From: an uncultured Candidatus Saccharibacteria bacterium
GTDB lineage: Bacteria; Patescibacteriota; Dojkabacteria; J137
DNA length: 64,000 bases
Assembly: GCA_964393185.1 (NCBI GenBank)
Contig: CAYMSO010000002.1
Location: 75,915-139,914, forward strand
Direction of reading: 5' to 3'
Shown here: positions 163 to 62,847 of the stretch, piece by piece
How the letters are laid out: each line of letters begins with the position of its first letter
How positions within the stretch are numbered: position 1 is the first letter of the stretch
Position numbers and translations under genes: made by a program
The notes under the pieces: model-generated
Told to the model about the DNA's origin: nothing
What the model saw: only the letters and a program-made list of their open reading frames with translations
Database searches by the model: none

Positions 163-246
163 ATAACTGATTACTCAAAACTGACAACTAATAGCTGATA
201 ACCGATAACCGACTACTGAATACTGATAACTGATAACTGATAACTA
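163..246 (+). repeat. Degenerate tandem heptamer array (about 12 units, AACYGAT type) abutting the mnmA stop codon
   Basis: Read directly: ATAACTG ATTACTC AAAACTG ACAACTA ATAGCTG ATAACCG ATAACCG ACTACTG AATACTG ATAACTG ATAACTG, strict 7-nt phase. Ends 1 nt before the stop at 247-249. Confidence 0.8.
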
Positions 247-5396: not shown

Positions 5397-5906
5397 CTAG
5401 ATGCTATAAAGAACTATACCTATGCTTGTTCCAACATTTAAGCTTGCACCTTTGCCATACATTGGAATATGCGTTGCTAAATCACACTTGGCTAAAGTAT
5501 CTTTTACTATTCCATAAACTTCACTTCCAGCAATAAAACAGATTTTATTTTCTCTCTGCAAAGTTCTATCCAAAGTATCCATAGGGATTGATTTGTCTGT
5601 CAGTTCTATTGCTACAATACGAAAACCTTGTTTTTTTAATGTATGTATTATCTTGCCAGTATCGCCTTTGCACCATTCAACAGAGGCTTCTTTATTTCTA
5701 GAGGCCTTTCTAAGATCCTTTCCAAAAGGCGGAGTTTTTGTAATACCCGTTAAATATATTCTTTTTACTCCTGCAGCATCGGCTGTTCTAAATATTCCGG
5801 CAACATTTCTTGCGTATTCTATATTTTCTAAAATTAGATAAATAAGCTTATCTCTTTTTTGATCTTTAAACATTTTTTTTATATCCTTTTTTCGTAGTTG
5901 TTTCAT
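5397..5906 (-). CDS. SpoU/TrmH-family RNA 2'-O-methyltransferase
   Basis: Motifs NVAGIFRTADAAGV, FIAGSEVYGI and IPMYGKGASLNVGTSIGIVLY. Confidence 0.8.
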   Translation of the reverse strand: MKQLRKKDIKKMFKDQKRDKLIYLILENIEYARNVAGIFRTADAAGVKRIYLTGITKTPPFGKDLRKASRNKEASVEWCKGDTGKIIHTLKKQGFRIVAIELTDKSIPMDTLDRTLQRENKICFIAGSEVYGIVKDTLAKCDLATHIPMYGKGASLNVGTSIGIVLYSI

Positions 5907-5945
5907 AAATTTTGTTTTGATTTTTCTCTATAGTATAATAGCAGC

Positions 5946-6620
5946 ATGAAAGGATTTTTCAAATCAACAACAACACTTGTACTAATCATTGTTTTTCTAG
6001 TTGCATGCATATTATCCATGCTGCTGATTTTTGCAGCAAGCTGGTTACATACCTATAAATCATTTACAAGAGAAAAAACGGTTGCAGAAATCAGAATTTC
6101 GGAACAAAAAGAAGACGAGCTTGGTAAATACGTAGAAGTTGAATTAACTCCAATAGTTAATGATCAGAGCGCTTTGTCTAGAATATTTATAGGAGAAGAA
6201 GATCCAAATCCAACAAAACTTAGTACCGAAACTTATAAACTTTATGGCGACTTAGTAGAAATTGGAGGACCAATAATAAAATTCAAAAATGGACTGATTT
6301 TAGTAAATTTTGAAACGGCTTATAAATTAAACATACTTGATGTCGAATACGAAAATGATGATGTTGCAGAAGAAAATAGAACTTCAGAAATGATAGATAG
6401 AGTAAGAATAGGCGAGAATGATAACACATACAGACAGATTGCAGATGCAATCAGAGAAGACAGTATTACGGGAAAAATATACAAGATTTTTTTTGACGGA
6501 GAGCCTCAAAGAAAGCAAACTGCTATTTATGTAACCGATAAACCTGTTGAAGGTGTAATTGTAATTAGGAATGATGGATTCCATTGGATAGCAAAAGAGC
6601 TAGACGATACAGCAGAGTAG
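5946..6620 (+). CDS. Hypothetical protein with N-terminal membrane anchor
   Basis: 224-aa ORF, TM helix near the N-terminus. TATAAT (5934-5939) lies 6 nt before the ATG. Confidence 0.4.
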   Translation: MKGFFKSTTTLVLIIVFLVACILSMLLIFAASWLHTYKSFTREKTVAEIRISEQKEDELGKYVEVELTPIVNDQSALSRIFIGEEDPNPTKLSTETYKLYGDLVEIGGPIIKFKNGLILVNFETAYKLNILDVEYENDDVAEENRTSEMIDRVRIGENDNTYRQIADAIREDSITGKIYKIFFDGEPQRKQTAIYVTDKPVEGVIVIRNDGFHWIAKELDDTAE

Positions 6621-8129: not shown

Positions 8130-9863
8130 TTAATAACCATACTTTGTATTCAACTCATTCAGTAAGTCGTAGTATTCATCAGCAGAGATTTCATTATTAT
8201 TATATCTTTCAGTTATTTCATCATAATCATTTAGATATCCTTCATAATCAAAATCTTCGAAGTTGAAATCATCTAATGAAGAATCATCATAATCATAGTC
8301 ATAATTATAATCTGACTCAATTGATGGTCCCAATGGTTTATATAGATTATCCGTTATCATTGATGTATCGAATAATTGTTCTAAATCCATCTCTCCTACT
8401 AATGCGTTAAAGCCTTCAGTAAAGTCCATATCAGCTTCTGGAACTACTATCTCGTAATCAGAATCGTAGCTTACTGTCAAAAATTGTAATTCAATATTTG
8501 AGGATACTTCGTCTGCATCAAAAGAAACTTTAAGACCGATACCTCTACTAGTGTCATCTTCTTTGTCTGAACACGAAGTCATACTCATCTTAAGATCCAA
8601 ATCTTCTAATGAGTTTTCTAACTCATCCATTGTTTCGTCAATAGATTCTTCAATATCCTCGACTGATTCTTCTCCTTCGTAAGATTCATCTTCAACAATT
8701 ACTTTTGCCATTTTTTTACCACCATTTCTTGTTACTTCTATCATATTTGCGAAATTTACATCTCCTGATACACATTTTGAGTTGCTTTCTTCTCTTATTG
8801 GGTCTACATTTTCCACATTGGAGAATACTTCGTAGTCGTTTATCATATCTTCCAATATGCTCATTAATTTTGGACCCACTCTCTGTAATATTTCTCTGTC
8901 TTCTTCATCCATTGATTCAAGTGTCTGCTCAAGACTAGTGTTAAATTCTTTAATAAAGTCGGATTTGCTTAATTCTTCTGTATCAAGACCATTAGAATAT
9001 GTTTGCAATAATTCAGCGTACTGAGGTATTAATTCAGCAACAAATGATTCTGCATTTATAGTAACTACCTTGTCCTCAATTGCAGCAATTGAATTAATTT
9101 CGTCCTGAGATAAACCTTCTTCTGCATCAATTTCTACATTACTTAGTTTTAAATATCCCTGAAGTTTATCCATTGTATATTCAAAATCTGCCTTGATCAC
9201 ATCTTCTGCTACTCTGTAGTCAAGATTACCTTCAACGTACATTGTTGGTAGCAAATTACCTAATTCTTCAGTATCCAAGTCTTCTAGGTAAGCTTGAAGA
9301 TCTTCTATATCTTCGAGATTATTTTCAGAATAATTTTCTGGATATTCGATGTATAGATCAGCACTTAAAGACATTTCGCCTTCAAAATCATCTTCTTTAT
9401 TTTCAAAATCTACATTCATTTCAATTGTGTTGTAGACAGTTTTTCCAGAAAGATCTATATCTTTTGAAGCAAGATGATTCAACTTGCCTGCAGATTCTTC
9501 GATATCTTCTACAAGCTTTTCTATGTCAAATACTTTCTTTGGATCTTCAGAATCTAATTCATCAAAATTGATAGCATTTATTACTGTTTTAATATTATCC
9601 TTTGCATATGCTTCCAATTCCTCAACTCCCGAATCAGCAGAGCTTACGCTAGAACTATCAGATACATTATTGTAAAGGAAGTATCCACCCAACGCCAAAG
9701 CAGCAGCTACAGCTACAACCCCTGCTACCACTAATCCAAAAGATGTCGGATTTTTCTTAGCAGGTGTTTCGGAAGCAGGAACGCTTTTTTCAGAGTTACT
9801 TACCGTATGCTCTGTCTCTGGCTTTGTTTCCTTTTCTTCCTCCTTGTTTTTTTTCTCCTCCAT
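8130..9863 (-). CDS. Hyper-acidic membrane-anchored protein, function unknown
   Basis: 577 aa. Lys/Glu-rich N-terminus, one TM (FGLVVAGVVAVAAALALGGYFLY), then a long D/E-rich ectodomain ending in DYNYDYDYDD-type tracts. Confidence 0.5.
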   Translation of the reverse strand: MEEKKNKEEEKETKPETEHTVSNSEKSVPASETPAKKNPTSFGLVVAGVVAVAAALALGGYFLYNNVSDSSSVSSADSGVEELEAYAKDNIKTVINAINFDELDSEDPKKVFDIEKLVEDIEESAGKLNHLASKDIDLSGKTVYNTIEMNVDFENKEDDFEGEMSLSADLYIEYPENYSENNLEDIEDLQAYLEDLDTEELGNLLPTMYVEGNLDYRVAEDVIKADFEYTMDKLQGYLKLSNVEIDAEEGLSQDEINSIAAIEDKVVTINAESFVAELIPQYAELLQTYSNGLDTEELSKSDFIKEFNTSLEQTLESMDEEDREILQRVGPKLMSILEDMINDYEVFSNVENVDPIREESNSKCVSGDVNFANMIEVTRNGGKKMAKVIVEDESYEGEESVEDIEESIDETMDELENSLEDLDLKMSMTSCSDKEDDTSRGIGLKVSFDADEVSSNIELQFLTVSYDSDYEIVVPEADMDFTEGFNALVGEMDLEQLFDTSMITDNLYKPLGPSIESDYNYDYDYDDSSLDDFNFEDFDYEGYLNDYDEITERYNNNEISADEYYDLLNELNTKYGY

Positions 9864-10023
9864 AGAATATGATTAACGAAATAAATTAATTTAAAAAAAA
9901 GCTTACTATAAGCTAATTCTAATACATAACACTAGAAATTCCAAGTTTTGAAAGTTAGTTATTGCAATCACTTTAAAAAATCAAACATTCGAAATCTCAA
10001 GTCACCAACATTGATCATCATTT

Positions 10024-10127
10024 ATAACCGACAACTGATCACTGATAACCGATGACTGACTACCGATTACTGATTACTGATCGCTGATAACTGACAACCG
10101 ATTACCGACAACTGATAACTGATAAAC
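10024..10127 (+). repeat. Degenerate tandem heptamer array (about 15 units, AACYGAT type) abutting the gpmI stop codon
   Basis: ATAACCG ACAACTG ATCACTG ATAACCG ATGACTG ACTACCG ATTACTG ATTACTG ATCGCTG ATAACTG ACAACCG ATTACCG ACAACTG ATAACTG. Confidence 0.85.
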
Positions 10128-11747: not shown

Positions 11748-11831
11748 GAGTTTTGAGTTATTGGGGTGTGGGTTATGAGGTTTTGAGTTTTGAGTTATGA
11801 CTTTTGGGTTTTGAGTTGTGGGGTTTGAGGG
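11748..11831 (-). repeat. Heptamer array in opposite orientation (G/T-rich on the + strand), immediately upstream of gpmI
   Basis: GAGTTTT GAGTTAT TGGGGTG TGGGTTA TGAGGTT TTGAGTT TTGAGTT ... The reverse complement reads AACTCAA/AACCCAA units. Confidence 0.8.
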
Positions 11832-21182: not shown

Positions 21183-21269
21183 CCCATAACCACTCCCCAT
21201 AACTCATAACTCGTAACTCACAACCCATAACCCGTAACTCAAAACTCAAAACCCATAACCCACAACTCC
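21181..21269 (+). repeat. Degenerate tandem heptamer array (about 12 units, AACYCAT/AACTCAA type) starting inside the ung stop codon
   Basis: AACCCAT AACCACT CCCCATA ACTCATA ACTCGTA ACTCACA ACCCATA ACCCGTA ACTCAAA ACTCAAA ACCCATA ACCCACA. Confidence 0.85.
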
Positions 21270-21325
21270 ATATTTACATCTGTTCTTTTTCTTTCTATAC
21301 TTCTAATATTAGTTATTTTTTAAAT

Positions 21326-45083: not shown

Positions 45084-45136
45084 CTAGTATATGAGAAAAA
45101 AAGCATGATGTAAACAAGGAGAAATTAACAAGTTAA

Positions 45137-45220
45137 CGGTTATCGGTAATGAGTTTTCAGAGTACTTGATTCTTATCTTATGTCCTTTTCTTCAAATTAC
45201 TGAAAACCGAAAACTGATAA
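45137..45220. repeat. Two short heptamer-type arms in inverted orientation upstream of the P-type ATPase
   Basis: GGTTATCGGTAATGAGTTTTCAG ... 38 nt ... CTGAAAACCGAAAACTGATAA. The arms match 15/21 as an inverted repeat. Confidence 0.6.
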
Positions 45221-45300
45221 TTTATTTAGTACCAACTATTTCTTATATCCTACGCATACTTCTTTTTATCGTGTTAAAATATTCTGTTTTAGTACATTTA

Positions 45301-48304: not shown

Positions 48305-48357
48305 TTGAGTGCTAAAGTTAGTTTTGTTATAATTTCCTAACAATTTAGCAAAAGCAT

Positions 48358-48612
48358 TGATTGGGAAGAGAAGTAATTCATCCAATTTAAGAGAGATGAC
48401 GGTAGGTGAAAGTCATTATTGCAAATTACTTCAGCCACCCATGAGCAGACTGCAAGAAAGACAAAAGTCACAAGCAGCTCCGAAAACTACATCGTTAAAG
48501 TAGGTTGTACAAAGTACAACAGAGGCTGTAACAGCAATGTTAGAGCGAATAAAGGTGGTACCACGGAAATCCGTCCTTTGTGTTTAATAAACATAGAGGA
48601 CGGGTTTTTTGG
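48358..48612 (+). promoter_or_regulatory. T-box riboswitch leader, Ala-specific (specifier GCC), with intrinsic terminator
   Basis: Stem I: helix AGTAATT/AATTACT, AG bulge AAGAGAG, distal hairpin GATGAC-GGTAGGTGAAA-GTCATT, specifier loop TCA-GCC-A closed by GGG/CCC. T-box sequence AATAAAGGTGGTACCACGG (48548-48566). Terminator CCGTCCT...AGGACGG plus TTTTTT (48571-48610). Extended -10 at 48325-48333. Confidence 0.75.
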
Positions 48613-48668
48613 GTTTTGGGTTGTGAGTTTTGGGTGTTGGGTTATGGGTTATGGGTGTTGGGTTAGGG
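48603..48668 (-). repeat. G-rich heptamer array (GGGTTNT-type, nine GGG tracts) directly after the T-box terminator
   Basis: GGGTTTTTTGGGTTTTGGGTTGTGAGTTTTGGGTGTTGGGTTATGGGTTATGGGTGTTGGGTTAGGG. The reverse complement reads AACCCAT/AACCCAA units. Confidence 0.85.
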
Positions 48669-48708
48669 ATTATTATCGACAGTGCATAAATTGTGTTTTA
48701 TTTAAAAT

Positions 48709-49194
48709 ATGGGCTATATTAAACGCAAAACACTTCGAAAACCGAGCCATAATTACAATGGAAAATATTCATATTTCATAACAATTTGCACGAAAAATAG
48801 GAAGGAATTCTTCGGCAAAATTGTAAATTCGCAGATGAATTTAACCGATATAGGAGAAACTGCATTGCAATGCTGGAATGAAATACCAATTCATTATCCT
48901 GGTACAAAATTAGATAATTTCGTAATCATGCCTGACCACATACATGGAATATTACATTTAGAAGGAGTGGCAACGCATGCGTTGTCACTTCAATCCGAAA
49001 AGCGCAAATATGATAGATTACCACGTGTCATAGGTGGATTTAAATCAGCAGTATCAAAATTAATCCATCAAAAATTCCCTGATAGAAATTTTAAATGGCA
49101 ACGTTCATACAATGATAAAATAATCATGAATGAATACGAATTAGAAAATGTCAGAAAATATATTATTAAAAATCCATCATTAATCAAAAATTAA
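48709..49194 (+). CDS. IS200/Y1 HUH-type transposase-like protein of the REP-associated (RAYT) kind
   Basis: 161 aa. YSYFITICTKNR, HUH motif MPDHIHGIL, C-terminal WQRSYNDKII (catalytic Tyr region), YIIKNP. Confidence 0.75.
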   Translation: MGYIKRKTLRKPSHNYNGKYSYFITICTKNRKEFFGKIVNSQMNLTDIGETALQCWNEIPIHYPGTKLDNFVIMPDHIHGILHLEGVATHALSLQSEKRKYDRLPRVIGGFKSAVSKLIHQKFPDRNFKWQRSYNDKIIMNEYELENVRKYIIKNPSLIKN

Positions 49195-49226
49195 AATTTA
49201 AAAAAATCATATATTAATAAAAGTCT

Positions 49227-51200
49227 ATGACAAACTCACAAATCTCAAACCACACAACCTCATTTAAAAACTCAAAACTCGAAACTCAAGACCACAAGTC
49301 ATCAAAACAAATACGACACGACTTCATCAATTTCTGGACCTCAAGTCCTAGAAACGCAAAAGAAGTACCAAATGTTTCTCTTGTTCCAAACAACGATCCA
49401 ACTTTACTTTTCGTTAATTCAGGAATGTTTCCAATTAATCCATATTTAGCAGGTCAGCCGCACCCATTGGGAACTAGACTTTGCAATTTACAAAGATGCT
49501 TGAGAACAAACTATGACGAAATGCTCGAAATTGGAGATAACAGGCACACATTAATGTTTGAAATGATGGGTAATTGGTCTTTGGGTGACTTTACAAAAGT
49601 TGATCAAATTCCGTGGATTATGGAATTCTGGGTTAAAGTTTGCGGACTTGATCCTAAAAGACTTTATGTTTCAGTTTTCGAAGGCAATGATGCTGCACCA
49701 CGCGATGATTTGGCAATTGAAACCTGGAAGAAAACCTTCAGAGAGTATGGCGTTGAAGCAGAATTCTCAGATGATATAACAAATATTCCAAAAGATCTAA
49801 AAGAAGGTGAAACATGGAAATATAGAATTTTCCCCTATGGTAAAAAGAAAAATTGGTGGCAAAGAGCTGCTGATGCACCAGGAGAATTAGGCGGCCCAAC
49901 ATCAGAAATGTTTTACGATATGGGAGAAATTATTCAACAACAGGATAAATATCATATTAATGATGATTCTGGAAGATTCATTGAAATTGGGAATAACGTT
50001 TTCATGGAATATAAATTTAGCGAGGAAGGTAAATGGGTTCTAATGGACAAGAAAAATATTGACTTTGGTGGTGGATTCGAAAGAGTAGTTATGATTGTAC
50101 AAAATAAAAAAGATATTTTCGAAACAGATGTGTATGAAGAAGTTCTGGGAGAAATTGAAAAAATCTCAGGCAAACCCTATAAGAAAGATGGCACTGAATA
50201 CGAAATGACTAAATATTTTAGGATTTTAGCTGATCATTCAAGAGCTGCAACATTTATTTTAGCTGACGGGGTTTTGCCTTCAAATAAAGATCAAGGTTAT
50301 ATTCTCAGAAGATTTATTCGAAGATTAGTACGTTATGGAATTATGCTTGGTATAGAAGGTAATTTTACAAAAACTCTTTCAAAAGCTGTAGTCAATTCAA
50401 TGAATTATGCTTATCCGCACCTTAAAGAGAATGAAGACAAGATTCTAGAAGAAATTGAAAAAGAAGAAATTAAATTTAGAAAGACCCTGACTAATGGATT
50501 AAAAGAAATTAGGAAAATGATTGATAGCAAGGTAAATATAGATGGTAAAAAAGCTTTTTATATTTACGAAACCTATGGTTTTCCTTTAGAAATGACTTTA
50601 GATGAATTCAATATTTCAGAAGATTATCAAATTGAAGAGATAAGTAAAGAATTTAATGAAGAACAAGAAAAGCATAGATCACAGTCAAAAGCAGGTGCAG
50701 AACAAAAGTTTAAAGGAGGCCTAGCTGATCAATCTGTAGAAACTACTAAACTGCATACAGCTCATCATCTGCTATTGAAAGCACTGCAACAAGTTTTAGG
50801 TTCAGAAGTTAAGCAACGAGGAAGTAATATTACAGGCGAAAGATTAAGAATTGATTTTAACTATGGAGATAAATTAACAGATGAGCAGGTCAAACAAGTT
50901 GAAGATATAGTTAATCAAAAAATCGCAGAAGGATTAGCAGTAAAAAGAGTTGAAATGCCAAAAGATGAGGCTGAAAAAATTGGAGCGCAAATGGAATTTG
51001 GACAGAAATATCCTGATACAGTTTCAGTTTACTTTATTGGTGCTGATGAAAATAATAAAGGCTGGTTCTCAGCTGAGTTCTGTGGTGGACCACATGTTAA
51101 AAATACTAAAGAAATTGGTGAAGGTGGAAAGAAATTTAAAATCCAAAAGCAGGAAAATGTAGGTGCAGGAACTAGGAGAATTAAAGCTATTTTGCAATAG
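49227..51200 (+). CDS. alaS: Alanine--tRNA ligase, short form (no C-Ala domain)
   Basis: IRHDFINFW, catalytic core, editing domain HTAHHLL and CGGPHV...GTRRIKAI, then a stop 2 aa later. The first ~25 codons overlap a heptamer array. Confidence 0.9.
   Translation: MTNSQISNHTTSFKNSKLETQDHKSSKQIRHDFINFWTSSPRNAKEVPNVSLVPNNDPTLLFVNSGMFPINPYLAGQPHPLGTRLCNLQRCLRTNYDEMLEIGDNRHTLMFEMMGNWSLGDFTKVDQIPWIMEFWVKVCGLDPKRLYVSVFEGNDAAPRDDLAIETWKKTFREYGVEAEFSDDITNIPKDLKEGETWKYRIFPYGKKKNWWQRAADAPGELGGPTSEMFYDMGEIIQQQDKYHINDDSGRFIEIGNNVFMEYKFSEEGKWVLMDKKNIDFGGGFERVVMIVQNKKDIFETDVYEEVLGEIEKISGKPYKKDGTEYEMTKYFRILADHSRAATFILADGVLPSNKDQGYILRRFIRRLVRYGIMLGIEGNFTKTLSKAVVNSMNYAYPHLKENEDKILEEIEKEEIKFRKTLTNGLKEIRKMIDSKVNIDGKKAFYIYETYGFPLEMTLDEFNISEDYQIEEISKEFNEEQEKHRSQSKAGAEQKFKGGLADQSVETTKLHTAHHLLLKALQQVLGSEVKQRGSNITGERLRIDFNYGDKLTDEQVKQVEDIVNQKIAEGLAVKRVEMPKDEAEKIGAQMEFGQKYPDTVSVYFIGADENNKGWFSAEFCGGPHVKNTKEIGEGGKKFKIQKQENVGAGTRRIKAILQ
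49231..49297 (+). repeat. C/A-rich heptamer array overlapping the 5' end of alaS
   Basis: CAAACTC ACAAATC TCAAACC ACACAAC CTCATTT AAAAACT CAAAACT CGAAACT CAAGACC. Confidence 0.7.
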
Positions 51201-52429: not shown

Positions 52430-53800
52430 ATGAAGCTAGTTACTAATTTAGAAGGAAGCAGTTCAGACAAAAAAAAGAAAGTAGATGTATCGACCAGAAC
52501 AGAAGATACAAAACCCACAAGTAGTGGATCAAGTTTTTATAATAAAGCCACAGAAAGCACAACTAGTGCACAAAATCATGCTCCTTATTCTGAGCCAGAA
52601 AAAACAGTTTATGCAAACACCGGTTCAGAACAAGGAGTAGGAGGGATCTTGAATGATTTAGTAGTAGTGGCATTAAATAAGGGTGCATCCGATATACATA
52701 TCGAACCTACAGAAGAAGCAGTTGTAGTAAGGTACAGAATAGATGGCATACTTAGAGATGCATTTAAAATCGAAAAAAAATACGAAGAATCTCTGATCTT
52801 CAAAATTAAAGTCAATGCCAAGCTAAGAACCGACGAACATTTCGCACCTCAAGATGGAAGAATTACTTTTGAAGTTGGCAAAAAAGTCGATACAAGAATT
52901 TCTATACTACCAACAACAAAAGGTGAGAAAGTAGTCATGAGACTTCTGTCTAAAGAAGGTAAGTCTTTTAAACTAGAAGATTTAGGTATGGGAGAGGAGG
53001 ATTTACTGAAAGTAACCAGAGCATATCTTAAACCTTACGGATCTATAATAGTATCTGGACCAACTGGTTCGGGAAAAACAACAACTTTGTATTCTATTCT
53101 TCAGATAATTAACTCGAGAGATATAAACATTACTACAGTTGAGGATCCGGTGGAATACGAAATTGAAGGCGTTAATCATGTCCAAATTAATGTTAAGGCA
53201 GGTCTAACTTTTGCAAAAGGTTTAAGATCAATACTTAGACAAGATCCTAATATAATAATGATAGGTGAAATCAGAGACGCCGAAACTGCAGAAATTGCAA
53301 CAAATTCGGCTATGACAGGCCACTTAGTGTTATCTACCATCCACACTAATGATGCCATCACAACCATTCCAAGACTAATCGATATGGGAGTAGACCCCTA
53401 TCTAATTGCAAATACCCTAAATGTAGTGATTGCCCAGAGACTTGCGCGAAGACTTTGCCAAAAATGTAAAGTTGAATACAAAATTACACAAAAAGATTTA
53501 GATGCACTAAGTTATTATCGACCAGACTTAACCAAGCTTTTAAAACCTGAAGAAACAGTATTTAAAGAAACAGGTTGTAAAGAGTGCGCTTCTGGATTTA
53601 AAGGTAGAGTTGGTCTTTACGAAGTACTAGAAATCACCGAAGAAATGCAAAAACTTATTCTATTAAAAACCAGTACAGACGAGATATTTAAAGTTGCTCG
53701 ATCTAAAGGATTAAAGTTGATTGTTGAAGATGGAATTGATAAGCTAAGAAAAGGAATTACCAGTCTTAGCGAAGTAATGAGGGTTACTGCATTAAAATAA
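52430..53800 (+). CDS. pilB: Type IV pilus assembly ATPase (GspE/PilB family)
   Basis: Walker A SGPTGSGKTTT, Asp box, Walker B IIMIGEIRD, His box STIHTND, tetracysteine CQKC...CKEC. Confidence 0.9.
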   Translation: MKLVTNLEGSSSDKKKKVDVSTRTEDTKPTSSGSSFYNKATESTTSAQNHAPYSEPEKTVYANTGSEQGVGGILNDLVVVALNKGASDIHIEPTEEAVVVRYRIDGILRDAFKIEKKYEESLIFKIKVNAKLRTDEHFAPQDGRITFEVGKKVDTRISILPTTKGEKVVMRLLSKEGKSFKLEDLGMGEEDLLKVTRAYLKPYGSIIVSGPTGSGKTTTLYSILQIINSRDINITTVEDPVEYEIEGVNHVQINVKAGLTFAKGLRSILRQDPNIIMIGEIRDAETAEIATNSAMTGHLVLSTIHTNDAITTIPRLIDMGVDPYLIANTLNVVIAQRLARRLCQKCKVEYKITQKDLDALSYYRPDLTKLLKPEETVFKETGCKECASGFKGRVGLYEVLEITEEMQKLILLKTSTDEIFKVARSKGLKLIVEDGIDKLRKGITSLSEVMRVTALK

Positions 53801-54030
53801 AAAACTACGAACTGAAGTTCATAGTTTTATGTTGTTAATGAAGAAGCTTAATTAAAAGACTAATCTCCATCCATTGGCTAAAGCCAATGGTTTTAAGATT
53901 AGTTTACAATAAAAAACTACGGACGTAAGTCCATAGTTTTATATTATTAAGTAAGAAGCTTAATTTGAAGACTAATCTCCTTCCATTGGCTAAAGCCAAT
54001 GATTTTAAGATTAGTTTACAATAAAGTAGC
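53800..54030 (+). repeat. Two tandem copies of a ~115-nt structured repeat in the pilB-pilC spacer
   Basis: Copies 53800-53912 and 53913-54030 are about 90 percent identical by eye. Each has hairpin 1 (AAAACTA-C-GAAC-TGAA-GTTC-A-TAGTTTT) and a long hairpin with inner stem CCATTGGC-TAAA-GCCAATGG and outer stem GACTAATCT/AGATTAGTT. Confidence 0.85.
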
Positions 54031-60220: not shown

Positions 60221-61351
60221 TTAGCTCAGTTTTAGTGCTCGATCAATGTTGTCTGGAGTTGCTTTAGTTATGATGTCTGGCAGTTCATCGTGTTCGTCGG
60301 TAAAACCCAATCTCTGTACATTTAGATAAAGATGATGAGCAATAGTTGTCATTATATTATCAGCTTGAAAGTGGCCATATGCGACTCTCTCCAATGCGGA
60401 CTCAAGAAAAGCGCTTGGAGCAGAAGCGAGAAATAATTCTCTGGCTCCTAAGAACTGAACTGCCGGCGTAATCTTGTGTAGTCCAGAATTTGTATAGCGA
60501 TTAATTATACTATTGCCATCAGGATTATTAGATAAATCTTCCATCAAAACTGCATTGCCCTGAATCAGATCCATAACTTTAGTATGAGTACTTTTTCTAT
60601 GGGCAATTTTCCTTTGCTGATTAGATCCGCGACTGATAATCAAAGCAGCATCGAGTTGAGCAATAGCTGACTGTACTTCTCTTCTCCTTACATTAATATA
60701 TCTACTCTTATTTTCACCAGCTAGTATAGAAAATTTATCTGCTATCTCTTGAGGTAGCATACTTCCACAACATATTGCAGTTAAAATGCCTGCAGTTACT
60801 CCATACCTTCGGGATATTCCTAGCAATATTCTATCTCTATTAGGAATATGTATTTCTTTATTAACCAAATCTCCTAAATGTTGGTACACAGGTTTAAACA
60901 TATTTACCTGCAAGGTAGGTTTGCCTTCAATTTCAAACCTAGTAACAGGAAAAACTGAGTTACGCCTTTCTACAACATAAGCACGTCCCTCATTATCTTT
61001 ATTACGAATCCGTATTATATAATCTTGTCCATTTCTACCTTCAATACATTGAACTAAACTTCGTTGCAATCTGTTACCCTGTAATATAAAGTCGTCAAAC
61101 TCCTGGGTATTATTTATGGCTTTGCCTATAATATGTTGCAATATCGAGCCGGCTATTTGCGTATTAGTACCATTTGGCAATTGCACCATAATATTCTCAA
61201 CTTCACCAGATAAATATGCTTCTATATTTTGTGGAGTACCAGGTAATGTCCCATGCTGATTGGCAATAGAGCGAAAAGTATCTACTGTAAGACCTTTTAC
61301 AACTTCTGGCATTTCCAAGCTGTTAGACATGTATAGCTCATGATCACTCAT
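60221..61351 (-). CDS. Hypothetical protein (ORFan) at the inner junction next to the uvrB N-half
   Basis: Long ORF with no motif. ATG at 61351 preferred, because the first 21 codons of the track ORF are AT-rich promoter-like sequence with TATAAT boxes. Confidence 0.4.
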   Translation of the reverse strand: MSDHELYMSNSLEMPEVVKGLTVDTFRSIANQHGTLPGTPQNIEAYLSGEVENIMVQLPNGTNTQIAGSILQHIIGKAINNTQEFDDFILQGNRLQRSLVQCIEGRNGQDYIIRIRNKDNEGRAYVVERRNSVFPVTRFEIEGKPTLQVNMFKPVYQHLGDLVNKEIHIPNRDRILLGISRRYGVTAGILTAICCGSMLPQEIADKFSILAGENKSRYINVRRREVQSAIAQLDAALIISRGSNQQRKIAHRKSTHTKVMDLIQGNAVLMEDLSNNPDGNSIINRYTNSGLHKITPAVQFLGARELFLASAPSAFLESALERVAYGHFQADNIMTTIAHHLYLNVQRLGFTDEHDELPDIITKATPDNIDRALKLS

Positions 61352-61555
61352 AATATCAATATAAATTATAAAGCGAATAATTATACTATAGTCGCCATAT
61401 TTTGACAACATCATATAGTTGGCAAAAGATTATAATTCTATTTTACCAAGACCTTGATTCTAGTAAGTAAACTTTTAACCTTCGATTAGAAATGCTAGTT
61501 ACCCAATGAAAATGAAAGTATCCTGAAGTAAATTAAGGTAAACTAATCAGAAGTA

Positions 61556-61608
61556 GTTATAACTCATAACCCCATTCCGAAAACCTATGACTGATAACTG
61601 ATAACCAA
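61556..61608 (+). repeat. Short mixed heptamer array abutting the stop codon of the uvrB N-half
   Basis: ATAACTC ATAACCC CATTCCG AAAACCT ATGACTG ATAACTG ATAACCA. Confidence 0.7.
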
Positions 61609-62847
61609 TTACTTATTATACAATCTTGCGCTTTCCTTACTTTGTTCTATCTCGTATTGCCTAGGAGTTGCAGACAAGTACACTACCTGGTTCAATCTGC
61701 TTTTAAATTCTTCAAACTTTAGTGGCCGGTTATCTAGTGCAGCTCTTAATCTGAAGCCATAATCTACAAGATTTTGTTTTCTGGATCTATCGCCTTCGTA
61801 CATACCTCCAATTTGCGGCACAGTAATATGAGATTCATCTATAAACATGAGGTAATCATCGGGAAAATAATCTAACAGGCAGGACCCTGCCGTTCCAGGG
61901 GCCCTTTTGTCAAAATATCTTGAATAATTTTCTATCCCTTTTGTAAAACCAGTTTCCCTAAGCATTTCTAAATCGTATGCGACTCTTTGCTTTAACCTGG
62001 CTGCTTCTATCATTTTGCCAGTATCGGTAAAAGCTTTCACTTCTTTTTCTGCATCTATTTCTATTTGCTGTATTGCATCGTTGACTTTGTCTTGTGGGCT
62101 TACGTAATGTTTAACAGGAAAAATTTTGTAAGAATCAACTCTTCTGATTAATTCGCCGCTTATTGGGTTTATTAATTTGATAGATTCAACTTCATCTCCA
62201 AACATTTCTAGTCTGACTGCTTGATCATCTGCCAAAGACAAATTTATATCTATAATTTCGCCTCTGACTCTAAAGCTTCCATTTCTAAAATCTTGCGTAC
62301 CTCTTTCGTACTGCATATCTGTTAATCGGCTAAATAGCTTGTCTCTATTTAGTGTTTGACCTACTTTAAGCTCTGCACTTAATGCAAGATAGTCATTTGG
62401 ATTACCCAGACCGTATATACAGCTTACTGTAGCAACTATTACCACATCTCTCCGAGTTAACAAATTCTGAGTTGCAGTATTCCTATATTTTTCGATTGTT
62501 TCGTTAATATCTGAATCTTTTTCTATATACAAATCCCTTTGCGGAACGTAAGCTTCTGGTTGATAATAATCATAGTAGCTAACAAAGTAAGAAACTGCAT
62601 TTTCCGGAAAGAATTCTCTAAATTCGGAAAATAACTGTGCTGCCAGGGTTTTGTTATGAGAAATAATAATGGTTGGTCTACCTGTATTTTGAATCACATT
62701 AGCCATTGTAAATGTTTTACCTGTTCCAGTTGCACCAATAATTGTCTGATGTTCAAGACCAGCTTGTATACCTGCAGTTATCAATTCAATTGCTTGTGGC
62801 TGATCCCCAGAAGGTTTATATTGTGAATTTAACTTAAAAGTAGACAT
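61609..62847 (-). CDS. uvrB: UvrB N-terminal half (domains 1a/1b/2 with beta-hairpin) as a stand-alone gene
   Basis: 412 aa. Walker A GATGTGKTFT, YYDYYQPEAY, FIDESHITVPQ, ends VYLSATPRQYEIEQSKES plus ARLYNK and a stop. Confidence 0.9.
   Translation of the reverse strand: MSTFKLNSQYKPSGDQPQAIELITAGIQAGLEHQTIIGATGTGKTFTMANVIQNTGRPTIIISHNKTLAAQLFSEFREFFPENAVSYFVSYYDYYQPEAYVPQRDLYIEKDSDINETIEKYRNTATQNLLTRRDVVIVATVSCIYGLGNPNDYLALSAELKVGQTLNRDKLFSRLTDMQYERGTQDFRNGSFRVRGEIIDINLSLADDQAVRLEMFGDEVESIKLINPISGELIRRVDSYKIFPVKHYVSPQDKVNDAIQQIEIDAEKEVKAFTDTGKMIEAARLKQRVAYDLEMLRETGFTKGIENYSRYFDKRAPGTAGSCLLDYFPDDYLMFIDESHITVPQIGGMYEGDRSRKQNLVDYGFRLRAALDNRPLKFEEFKSRLNQVVYLSATPRQYEIEQSKESARLYNK

Follow-up and report, generated by a model that had tools for sequence, protein, structure and literature searches.

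A subclass 2.4 RAYT gene in the alaS T-box leader of a Dojkabacteria-like bacterium, beside TAACTGA-type heptamer repeats

Architecture of the alaS locus

The DNA analyzed here, hereafter the window, is a stretch of 64,000 nucleotides (positions 75,915 to 139,914 of contig CAYMSO010000002.1, NCBI GenBank assembly GCA_964393185.1) from an uncultured bacterium whose alanyl-tRNA synthetase (AlaRS) is 61–82% identical to proteins named Candidatus Dojkabacteria. Between the T-box leader of its alaS gene and alaS itself lies a gene of the RAYT family (REP-associated tyrosine transposase, where REP denotes a repetitive extragenic palindrome), with arrays of tandem heptamers on both sides. The explanation that we favor, with a probability of roughly 70%, is that of an orphan RAYT of subclass 2.4 in the alaS T-box leader, located beside independent heptamer repeats of the TAACTGA type. 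The order on the plus strand is the P-type ATPase gene, a 135-aa open reading frame (ORF), a promoter-like site, the T-box, the terminator, the left array, the RAYT gene and alaS, with the following coordinates.

48305–48333, plus strand: sigma-70-like promoter TTGAGT-17-TATAAT with TG, before the T-box leader (consensus match only)
48348–48581, plus strand: T-box leader, Rfam RF00230, 105.3 bits against a cut-off of 93, model positions 1–219 (full-length)
48565–48609, plus strand: intrinsic terminator hairpin and T-run of the T-box, conserved in the closest relative, L082
48603–48670, plus strand: left array, GGGTTWT/GAGTTTT (reverse complement TAACCCA/AAACTCA), about 8–9 units; Tandem Repeats Finder (TRF) period 7, 8.3 copies, 80% matches
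48709–49194, plus strand: RAYT/TnpAREP-like Y1 HUH gene, 161 aa, assigned to subclass 2.4 (group 4), sole copy in the window
49227–51200, plus strand: alaS, 657 aa, AlaRS Pfam domain from residue 28
49228–49297, plus strand: right array, AAACTCA-type units, within the first ~24 codons of alaS (TRF and unit parsing)

The T-box carries the specifier GCC (Ala) followed by A, as read from the RF00230 alignment, and its bulge UGGU fits the discriminator A73. As in other T-box-controlled aminoacyl-tRNA synthetase operons, a full-length T-box (here with an Ala specifier) and a terminator precede alaS, and the same arrangement is found in the relatives L082 and L084. However, about 645 nt, comprising a G-rich array and a complete foreign ORF, separate the terminator from alaS in the window, as against 37 nt in L082. 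The RAYT ORF begins 100 nt past the terminator, and 32 nt separate its end from the alaS ATG, in agreement with the spacing given in an initial annotation made from the letters of the window alone.

Identity and conserved motifs of the RAYT gene

The 161-aa ORF matches the Pfam model Y1_Tnp (PF01797) with 34.9 bits (cut-off 23 bits; E 1.9e-8; profile positions 5–119 of 121). Its best NCBIfam match is REP_Tyr_transpos (NF047646) at 53.4 bits, under the equivalog cut-off of 80, and the IS200 model NF033573 scores 22.2 bits, under its cut-off of 55. A search of 5.8 billion proteins returned 397 relatives, several of which carry the JGI name RayT and the closest of which is 50% identical. In the PDB, the profile of a 31-sequence alignment found a single match, E. 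coli TnpAREP (4ER8), where PDHIHG of the window protein corresponds to PEHMHC, and WQ...YIIKNP to WQ...YIYINP. A tblastn search of the window with 120 members of the family recovered one RAYT copy, and the sole other contig with an identical RAYT protein (L001) is the window base for base. The motifs are placed as follows.

48937–48945, plus strand: HUH motif H77-I-H79 (in PDHIHG), aligned to PEHMHC of 4ER8
49096–49128, plus strand: WQ and guide-recognition stretch, W130-Q131...D136-K137...M140, from the 4ER8 alignment
49159–49161, plus strand: catalytic tyrosine Y151 (in RKYIIKNP), invariant in the 31-sequence alignment and aligned to the tyrosine of 4ER8

Residues H77, H79, K112, W130, Q131, Y151 and N155 are invariant among the 31 aligned sequences. 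Y151 is assigned as the catalytic tyrosine because it aligns to 4ER8, with the Tyr of DYIYINP as its counterpart (Y115 by our own residue count), and lies in the family Y motif YIxxNP. The RAYT-like Y1/HUH identity and the HUH motif named in the initial annotation are thus borne out and a catalytic tyrosine is present, but that annotation had placed the tyrosine in WQRSYNDKII, which is the region of GTAG recognition and whose own Tyr, Y134, is replaced by Phe in many homologues.

The motifs described for subclass 2.4 are NH[IFV]H, WQ and YIxNNP (PMC6006769, Table 1). The window gene has DHIH, WQ and YIIKNP; close homologues likewise show Asp in place of Asn, and Lys at the x/N position. These motifs place the ORF in RAYT subclass 2.4 as defined by Quentin et al. 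2018, equivalent to group 4 of Bertels. With the described members (PMC6006769, PMC5581495) it shares the motifs [ND]H[IFV]H, WQ and YIxxNP, an N-terminal block (YDYS..G.YFITICT), low copy number (for the window gene, within 64 kb), and a palindromic REP that is read in frame and stands at the same offset, between HUH and Tyr. It differs from them in having no flanking or dispersed GT[AG]G REPs in the 64 kb and degenerate feet on its in-gene REP, in two substitutions at guide-recognition positions, and in a C-terminus that ends in host spacer. The setting differs as well: the closest protein is 50% identical, the gene is inside a T-box-controlled leader, and the host is a Dojkabacteria-like member of the candidate phyla radiation (CPR), whereas the homologues of the subclass come mainly from Cyanobacteria, Bacteroidota, Chloroflexota, Chlorobiota/Ignavibacteria and scattered phyla.

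The two substitutions are found in the stretch that follows WQ, whose equivalents in the E. coli protein are W94, Q95, E100, H101 and R104. Three of these residues, W94, Q95 and R104, mark the recognition of GTAG (PMC6006769). In the window protein, this set is only in part conserved: W130 and Q131 are retained, the R104 equivalent is lost to Met (M140) in a column that is Arg in 92% of 119 homologues, and H101 is replaced by Lys.

Two related systems help to place the gene. E. coli TnpAREP (YafM, 4ER8) shares the Y1 HUH nuclease fold family, the aligned HUH, WQ and Y-I-x-x-N-P motifs and the character of a single-copy, domesticated-type gene. However, it belongs to subclass 2.2 and is bracketed by copies of REPs or bacterial interspersed mosaic elements (BIMEs) with hundreds of genomic members, whereas the window gene has heptamer tandem arrays only and no REP/BIME bracket. 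The IS200/IS605 elements have in common with the window gene the Pfam family PF01797 and the HUH/Tyr chemistry. Assignment to IS200/IS605 is contradicted by the YIIKNP motif (not Y[IV]ENQ), the absence of terminal or subterminal hairpins, the single copy and the 22.2 bits with NF033573; there is also no tnpB.

An in-gene palindrome and the GTAG hairpins of the homologues

The gene contains one palindrome of the REP kind.

48963–48990, plus strand: REP-like palindrome in frame inside the RAYT gene, core GTGGCAACGCATGCGTTGTCAC at 48967–48988

The 22-nt core, at offset +258 nt of the gene, encodes VATHALSL, and the palindrome folds as a 10-bp hairpin (z = -2.95). Its feet are degenerate, GGAG...CTTC in place of the canonical GTAG...CTAC. 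No further copy was found in the window at up to 3 mismatches. A custom hairpin scan of the window likewise found no GTAG-type REP family, returning only the in-gene palindrome and unrelated matches in coding sequence; no GT[AG]G-footed hairpin flanks the gene, and within 3 kb the in-gene one is the only one. We call this RAYT an orphan because GTAG hairpins neither flank it nor occur elsewhere in the 64 kb.

In the homologues such hairpins are the rule. Among 84 homologue loci (80 species genomes and 4 close metagenomic relatives; 1.25 Mb), a GT[AG]G hairpin lies inside the RAYT gene in 57, at about +240 to +310 nt, and no farther than 500 bp from it in 47; 73 loci have one in either place. 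Their density in the gene and its flanks, 1.2–1.5 per kb, is 14–18 times the 0.086 per kb of the remaining locus sequence. REPs inside the gene have been described for subclass 2.4 (PMC6006769), and the in-gene GTAG hairpin of locus L027, GTAGGGACAACGCATGCGTTGTCCCTAC, stands at the same offset as the window palindrome. The REP listed for the Microcystis 2.4 protein BAG06124.1, GTAGGGATAATTCATGAATTATCCCTAC (PMC6006769, Table S1), was recovered in and beside the Microcystis homologue L016, a match that ties the homologue set to subclass 2.4. The natural DNA partner of this subclass is the GTAG-footed hairpin, and the palindrome of the window gene would be a single degenerate copy of it that survives in frame.

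Heptamer arrays in the window

Arrays were detected by TRF and period-7 autocorrelation at 163, 10024, 11748, 21198, 48607 and 49231, and a unit-based scan added the short arrays at 45137/45196 and 61588. Besides the left and right arrays, the window contains the following.

163–245, plus strand: TAACTGA-type array, ending just before the stop codon of mnmA (minus strand)
10024–10125, plus strand: TAACTGA/TAACCGA array, ending just before the stop codon of iPGM (minus strand)
11748–11829, plus strand: GAGTTTT/GGGTTAT array between the divergent genes iPGM and tgt
21183–21270, plus strand: TAACCCA/AAACTCA array, beginning right after the stop codon of UDG
45137–45222, no strand assigned: two short inverted arrays about 36 nt apart (45137/45196), upstream of the P-type ATPase gene (unit-based scan)
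61586–61608, plus strand: TAACTGA mini-array of three units, adjoining the stop codon of a 412-aa UvrB-like ORF (unit-based scan)

All sites conform to the unit formula [TAC][AT]AC[TC][GC]A, as the initial annotation had implied in relating the two flanking arrays to six other sites. Two dialects coexist, TAACTGA/TAACCGA (xxACTGA/xxACCGA) and TAACCCA/AAACTCA (xxACTCA/xxACCCA). Runs of at least three consecutive units occur 8 times in the window (GC 33.8%) and 0 times in 30 dinucleotide shuffles, and the density of arrays is about one per 8 kb. They are located at gene boundaries, namely at stop codons (mnmA, iPGM, UDG and the UvrB-like ORF), in two divergent spacers, at the T-box terminator and at the start of alaS; four abut stop codons within 0–2 nt. 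The longest exact match between arrays is 12–19 nt, i.e., about 2–2.7 units; the arrays look assembled independently from one unit vocabulary and not copied as blocks. Inverted pairs were considered as hairpins of the REPIN type and rejected: the hairpin potential of the pair at 45125–45230 does not differ significantly from that of shuffles (z = -0.75). As direct repeats that lack a GTAG foot, the arrays do not resemble REPs or REPINs.

The left array begins in the T-run of the terminator. Its sense strand has nine GGG tracts, six of them with 4-nt loops at 48627–48668, a predicted G-quadruplex of textbook form just past the T-box terminator that the DNA and any readthrough RNA would share. 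The right array starts one codon past ATG 49227, the only canonical start of alaS; no other in-frame ATG, GTG or TTG is found between it and the conserved KQIR motif. The right array is thus read as a low-complexity N-terminal extension of AlaRS of about 24 residues, TNSQISNHTTSFKNSKLETQDHK (window 49227–49310). Arms of the left and right arrays are 75–83% complementary over 23–28 nt. Both flanking arrays, and their inverted orientation, are therefore real as first described, but the right one lies inside alaS and not between the two genes.

TAACTGA tandem repeats are known from marine Beggiatoaceae, 15 Cyanobacteria and 5 Bacteroidetes (MacGregor 2015, PMC4679880). By its units, the array family of the window is the TAACTGA-type heptamer tandem repeat class of that study. 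In common with it, with the heptamers of Mrazek 2007 and with the cyanobacterial STRR heptamers are the unit TAACTGA and its one- and two-base variants, tandem intergenic placement a few bases from start or stop codons, mixture with other heptamers, indels in 7-nt steps, and a host with few Shine-Dalgarno sites. The differences are that the Dojkabacteria-like host is outside MacGregor's list, that the TAACCCA/AAACTCA dialect dominates four sites, and that one array is translated as an AlaRS extension and another directly follows a T-box terminator. On the spread of the repeats, MacGregor writes 'no mechanism is evident', and the paper makes no mention of transposases (PMC4679880). Mrazek 2007, by a later summary, found that among long simple repeats heptanucleotides are the most abundant in most genomes, and proposed polymerase slippage. 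Local replication slippage would most simply explain the arrays of the TAACTGA type.

No association between arrays and RAYT genes in the loci compared

A gene for a RAYT-like enzyme framed by inverted arrays brings to mind the REPtron, and the initial annotation had proposed an unusual RAYT–repeat pairing. In such a frame, the heptamer arrays would be the equivalents of REPs, and the enzyme would bind and cut them as single strands and spread or seed them. In accordance with this, arrays of the same family stand in inverted orientation on both sides of the gene, the window has no GTAG REP family, and the guide-recognition residues are atypical (Arg to Met, His to Lys) in a gene whose own REP has lost its GTAG/CTAC feet. 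Subclass 2.4 and the TAACTGA arrays both come mainly from Cyanobacteria and Bacteroidetes, and Microcystis NIES-843 and Flexibacter litoralis have both a 2.4 RAYT and TAACTGA arrays. Period-7 arrays also occur somewhere in 17 of the 84 RAYT loci.

The association tests point the other way, and lack of association with arrays at other loci is one of the outcomes that the initial annotation had named as refuting. The 36 period-7 arrays of the homologue loci leave 67 of the 84 without any, and within 300, 500, 1000 and 2000 bp of a RAYT homologue 1, 2, 4 and 6 arrays are observed against 1.4, 2.3, 4.5 and 8.6 expected. Arrays are thus unenriched beside the same 84 homologues at which GTAG hairpins are strongly enriched. 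Among the four closest homologues examined, none has a heptamer array adjoining the gene; in two, clear GTAG double-foot hairpins stand just upstream, and in the other two the hairpin-like sequences are weaker. In the window, eight array sites stand against one RAYT, and the arrays beside ordinary genes, mostly housekeeping ones (mnmA, iPGM, tgt, UDG, the P-type ATPase gene and the UvrB fragment), look like those beside the RAYT gene. The Y1 enzymes of this family use hairpins, which the arrays do not form, and the right array is coding sequence that predates the indel described below or is independent of it. The 120 loci (0.9 Mb, 235 period-7 arrays) that a scan for (TAACTGA)x4 retrieved from metagenomes contain no RAYT homologue, a test of low power, as about 2 would be expected even under linkage. 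In Quentin's Table S1, which is not a complete presence/absence list, Microcystis and Flexibacter are the only TAACTGA-bearing species with 2.4 REPtrons, and their 2.4 RAYTs pair with ordinary GTAG REPs. The relative L085 has arrays yet no RAYT in 22 kb. A pairing in which the arrays serve as substrate is therefore highly improbable; if it were true that the RAYT acts on heptamer arrays, this would explain their origin and spread, left open by MacGregor (2015), and the evidence points away from it.

A narrower version supposes that this one RAYT has lost the recognition of GTAG hairpins and now nicks, seeds or resizes single-stranded TAACTGA-type arrays. Relaxed or altered DNA recognition is indeed suggested by the Met and Lys substitutions, by the decayed feet of the REP and by a C-terminus derived from host sequence, but retargeting to the arrays is an extremely doubtful proposition. 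If true, it would provide an enzymatic origin for the arrays of Cyanobacteria, Bacteroidota, Beggiatoaceae and CPR bacteria, and the enzyme would be under tRNA-Ala (T-box) control.

Several observations on heptamers at the comparison loci are recorded here. The commonest TRF period in 1.2 Mb of RAYT-homologue loci is 7. Loci L017, L027, L028, L063 and L009 have many different long heptamer arrays within 10 kb of the RAYT gene and not adjacent to it; long arrays near homologues include AGTACCG x23 and CTGCTCA x14, in hosts from Bacteroidota, Planctomycetota, Ignavibacteria and Balneolales. At 143–413 of L085, a divergent spacer contains inverted arrays of AGTTTGT x4 and CTACAAN x4, separated by about 170 nt, which resemble the window pair at 45137–45222.

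Comparison with relatives at alaS

In the closest relative (L082/L083), AlaRS is 82% identical and a homologous T-box (76.6 bits) is followed by the same terminator, 37 nt and alaS, without the RAYT gene and without the left array. Homology between the window and L082 stops in the terminator T-run at about 48609 and resumes as follows.

49183–49205, plus strand: sequence homologous to the T-box–alaS spacer of L082, beginning ATCAAAAATTAAA at 49183 (pairwise alignment)

The segment absent from L082 measures about 573 bp (48610–49182) and holds the left array and the RAYT gene only, the last three codons of which (IKN), together with the stop codon, are supplied by the L082-homologous spacer. 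In L082, alaS likewise opens with ATGACAAA, and its C/A-rich extension is shorter. The right array falls outside the indel segment because it is in the alaS frame and a shorter version of it is kept in L082. In most AlaRS relatives, the protein starts MKTS.QIR and the array-encoded extension is missing. Comparison of the spacer with a relative that lacks the gene, which the initial annotation had suggested as a check of the pairing, thus leaves the pairing unsupported: L082 is without the RAYT gene and left array, and keeps a shorter right stretch inside alaS.

Other relatives have other genes at this position, a HAD-family hydrolase gene (9093–10001) between the T-box (94.3 bits) and alaS in L084, and a gene for a 23S-rRNA-intervening-sequence-like protein (IVP-like, 5548–6001) 24 nt before alaS in L091. 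No T-box was found in L085, L091 or L092. Because L084 and L091 carry other genes there, the position before alaS evidently tolerates passengers, and such genes seem to have landed in the alaS leader repeatedly.

This variability before alaS raises the question of whether arrays, as fragile or recombinogenic sites (through single-strandedness or G-quadruplexes), attract insertions, in which case their association with the gene would reflect target preference and not mobilization of a substrate. The left array, with its nine GGG tracts, abuts the boundary of the insertion, and MacGregor has proposed that long heptamer arrays act in gene rearrangement (PMC4679880). However, the empty site of L082 is without the left array, the inserted genes of L084 and L091 are without adjoining arrays (none detected in L084; no T-box in L091), and arrays are unenriched near RAYT homologues in general. 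We consider an array-directed insertion very unlikely.

Transcription and state of the RAYT gene

The sole good promoter-like site of the leader is upstream of the T-box, and a promoter and terminator scan found neither kind of site between the T-box terminator and alaS. A TATATT 11 nt before the alaS ATG, noticed by eye as a possible promoter, fails the criteria of the scan and is not counted. Because the scan found no such site in this interval, readthrough of the T-box would transcribe the array and the RAYT gene before alaS, as had been anticipated in the initial annotation. The RAYT gene is probably co-transcribed with alaS in this way, and its expression would consequently rise when tRNA-Ala is uncharged.

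Neither a Shine-Dalgarno sequence nor a leaderless-type promoter precedes the RAYT ATG. Among ATG-start ORFs of the window (for example at 1410, 5946, 17880, 19273, 23869, 26591, 42309 and 62847), 2 of 44 genes have a Shine-Dalgarno-like motif. A TATAAT-like hexamer ends 5–9 nt before the ATG of many, which suggests widespread leaderless mRNAs.

The gene may alternatively be an inactive, decaying relic, the fragment of a REPtron that has lost its 3' end and its REPs, its frame open by chance or through recent arrival, and the arrays unrelated. The last three codons and the stop codon lie in host spacer, and the position after NP, Trp in 82% of 119 homologues, is Ile. In addition, the R104 position has lost its Arg, the feet of the in-gene REP are degenerate and no flanking or dispersed REPs occur in the 64 kb, the NCBIfam score falls under the equivalog cut-off, and the ATG lacks both initiation signals. 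On the other side, the ORF is intact over its full length and retains 42 of the 49 columns with a conservation of 75% or more in the 119 homologues, including HUH, K112, WQ, Y151 and N155-P156. Several homologues in the 31-sequence alignment terminate equally near the NP motif, and the want of a Shine-Dalgarno sequence is common to nearly all genes of the window. The GC content of the gene, 0.311, is near the 0.338 of the host; the gene is therefore not obviously a recent arrival, and long residence without decay is suggested. A decayed relic is accordingly unlikely, and the protein may still be active.

Discussion

The explanation that we favor, an orphan subclass 2.4 RAYT beside independent heptamer repeats, can be put as a series of steps. 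The RAYT gene, with or next to one array, would have inserted between the alanine T-box terminator and alaS, carrying its degenerate GTAG hairpin in frame. The flanking arrays would belong to a separate, genome-wide class of simple repeats at gene boundaries, grown by local slippage, one of which would have grown into the 5' end of alaS and be translated with it. Uncharged tRNA-Ala would cause antitermination, and the transcript would cross the G-rich array and the RAYT gene to reach alaS.

Five points weigh against this explanation. Slippage leaves the recurrence of the TAACTGA unit in distant phyla unexplained. Inverted arrays on both sides of one small gene are uncommon, and by our own estimate (about 6 arrays in about 62 spacers) about 0.5 adjacent array pairs are expected against 2 seen. 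The indel may instead reflect a loss of the segment from L082; L084, L085, L091 and L092 are too divergent or too differently organized to separate insertion from deletion. The view is limited to 64 kb, and dispersed GTAG REPs or more RAYT copies may be present elsewhere. Finally, the R104-to-Met and H101-to-Lys replacements and the loss of both feet of the in-gene REP also fit a changed DNA specificity.

Two further features of the window are noted for completeness. The UvrB-like ORF beside the mini-array (61609–62847, about 412 aa, ResIII and UvrB_inter) has the same length in L084, L085, L091 and L092, and the next ORF downstream (60221–61414) has no Pfam match. Between the pilB-like (T2SSE) and pilC-like (T2SSF) genes, a 112-bp tandem duplication (53792–54025; 2.1 copies, 89% identical) has two hairpins in each copy, one of them terminator-like, ACTACGAAC...GTTCATAGTTTT, and the second one long, GACTAATCTCC...AAGATTAGT.

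In sum, a new RAYT–repeat system is not established. The RAYT gene is fairly ordinary for its subclass, and it is the position in the alaS leader that is unusual. To a RAYT subfamily already described, the locus adds a Dojkabacteria-like host of the CPR and an unusual location, in the T-box leader ahead of an essential synthetase gene. It also extends the TAACTGA-type arrays to a phylum without an earlier report, with one array that would be translated into AlaRS.

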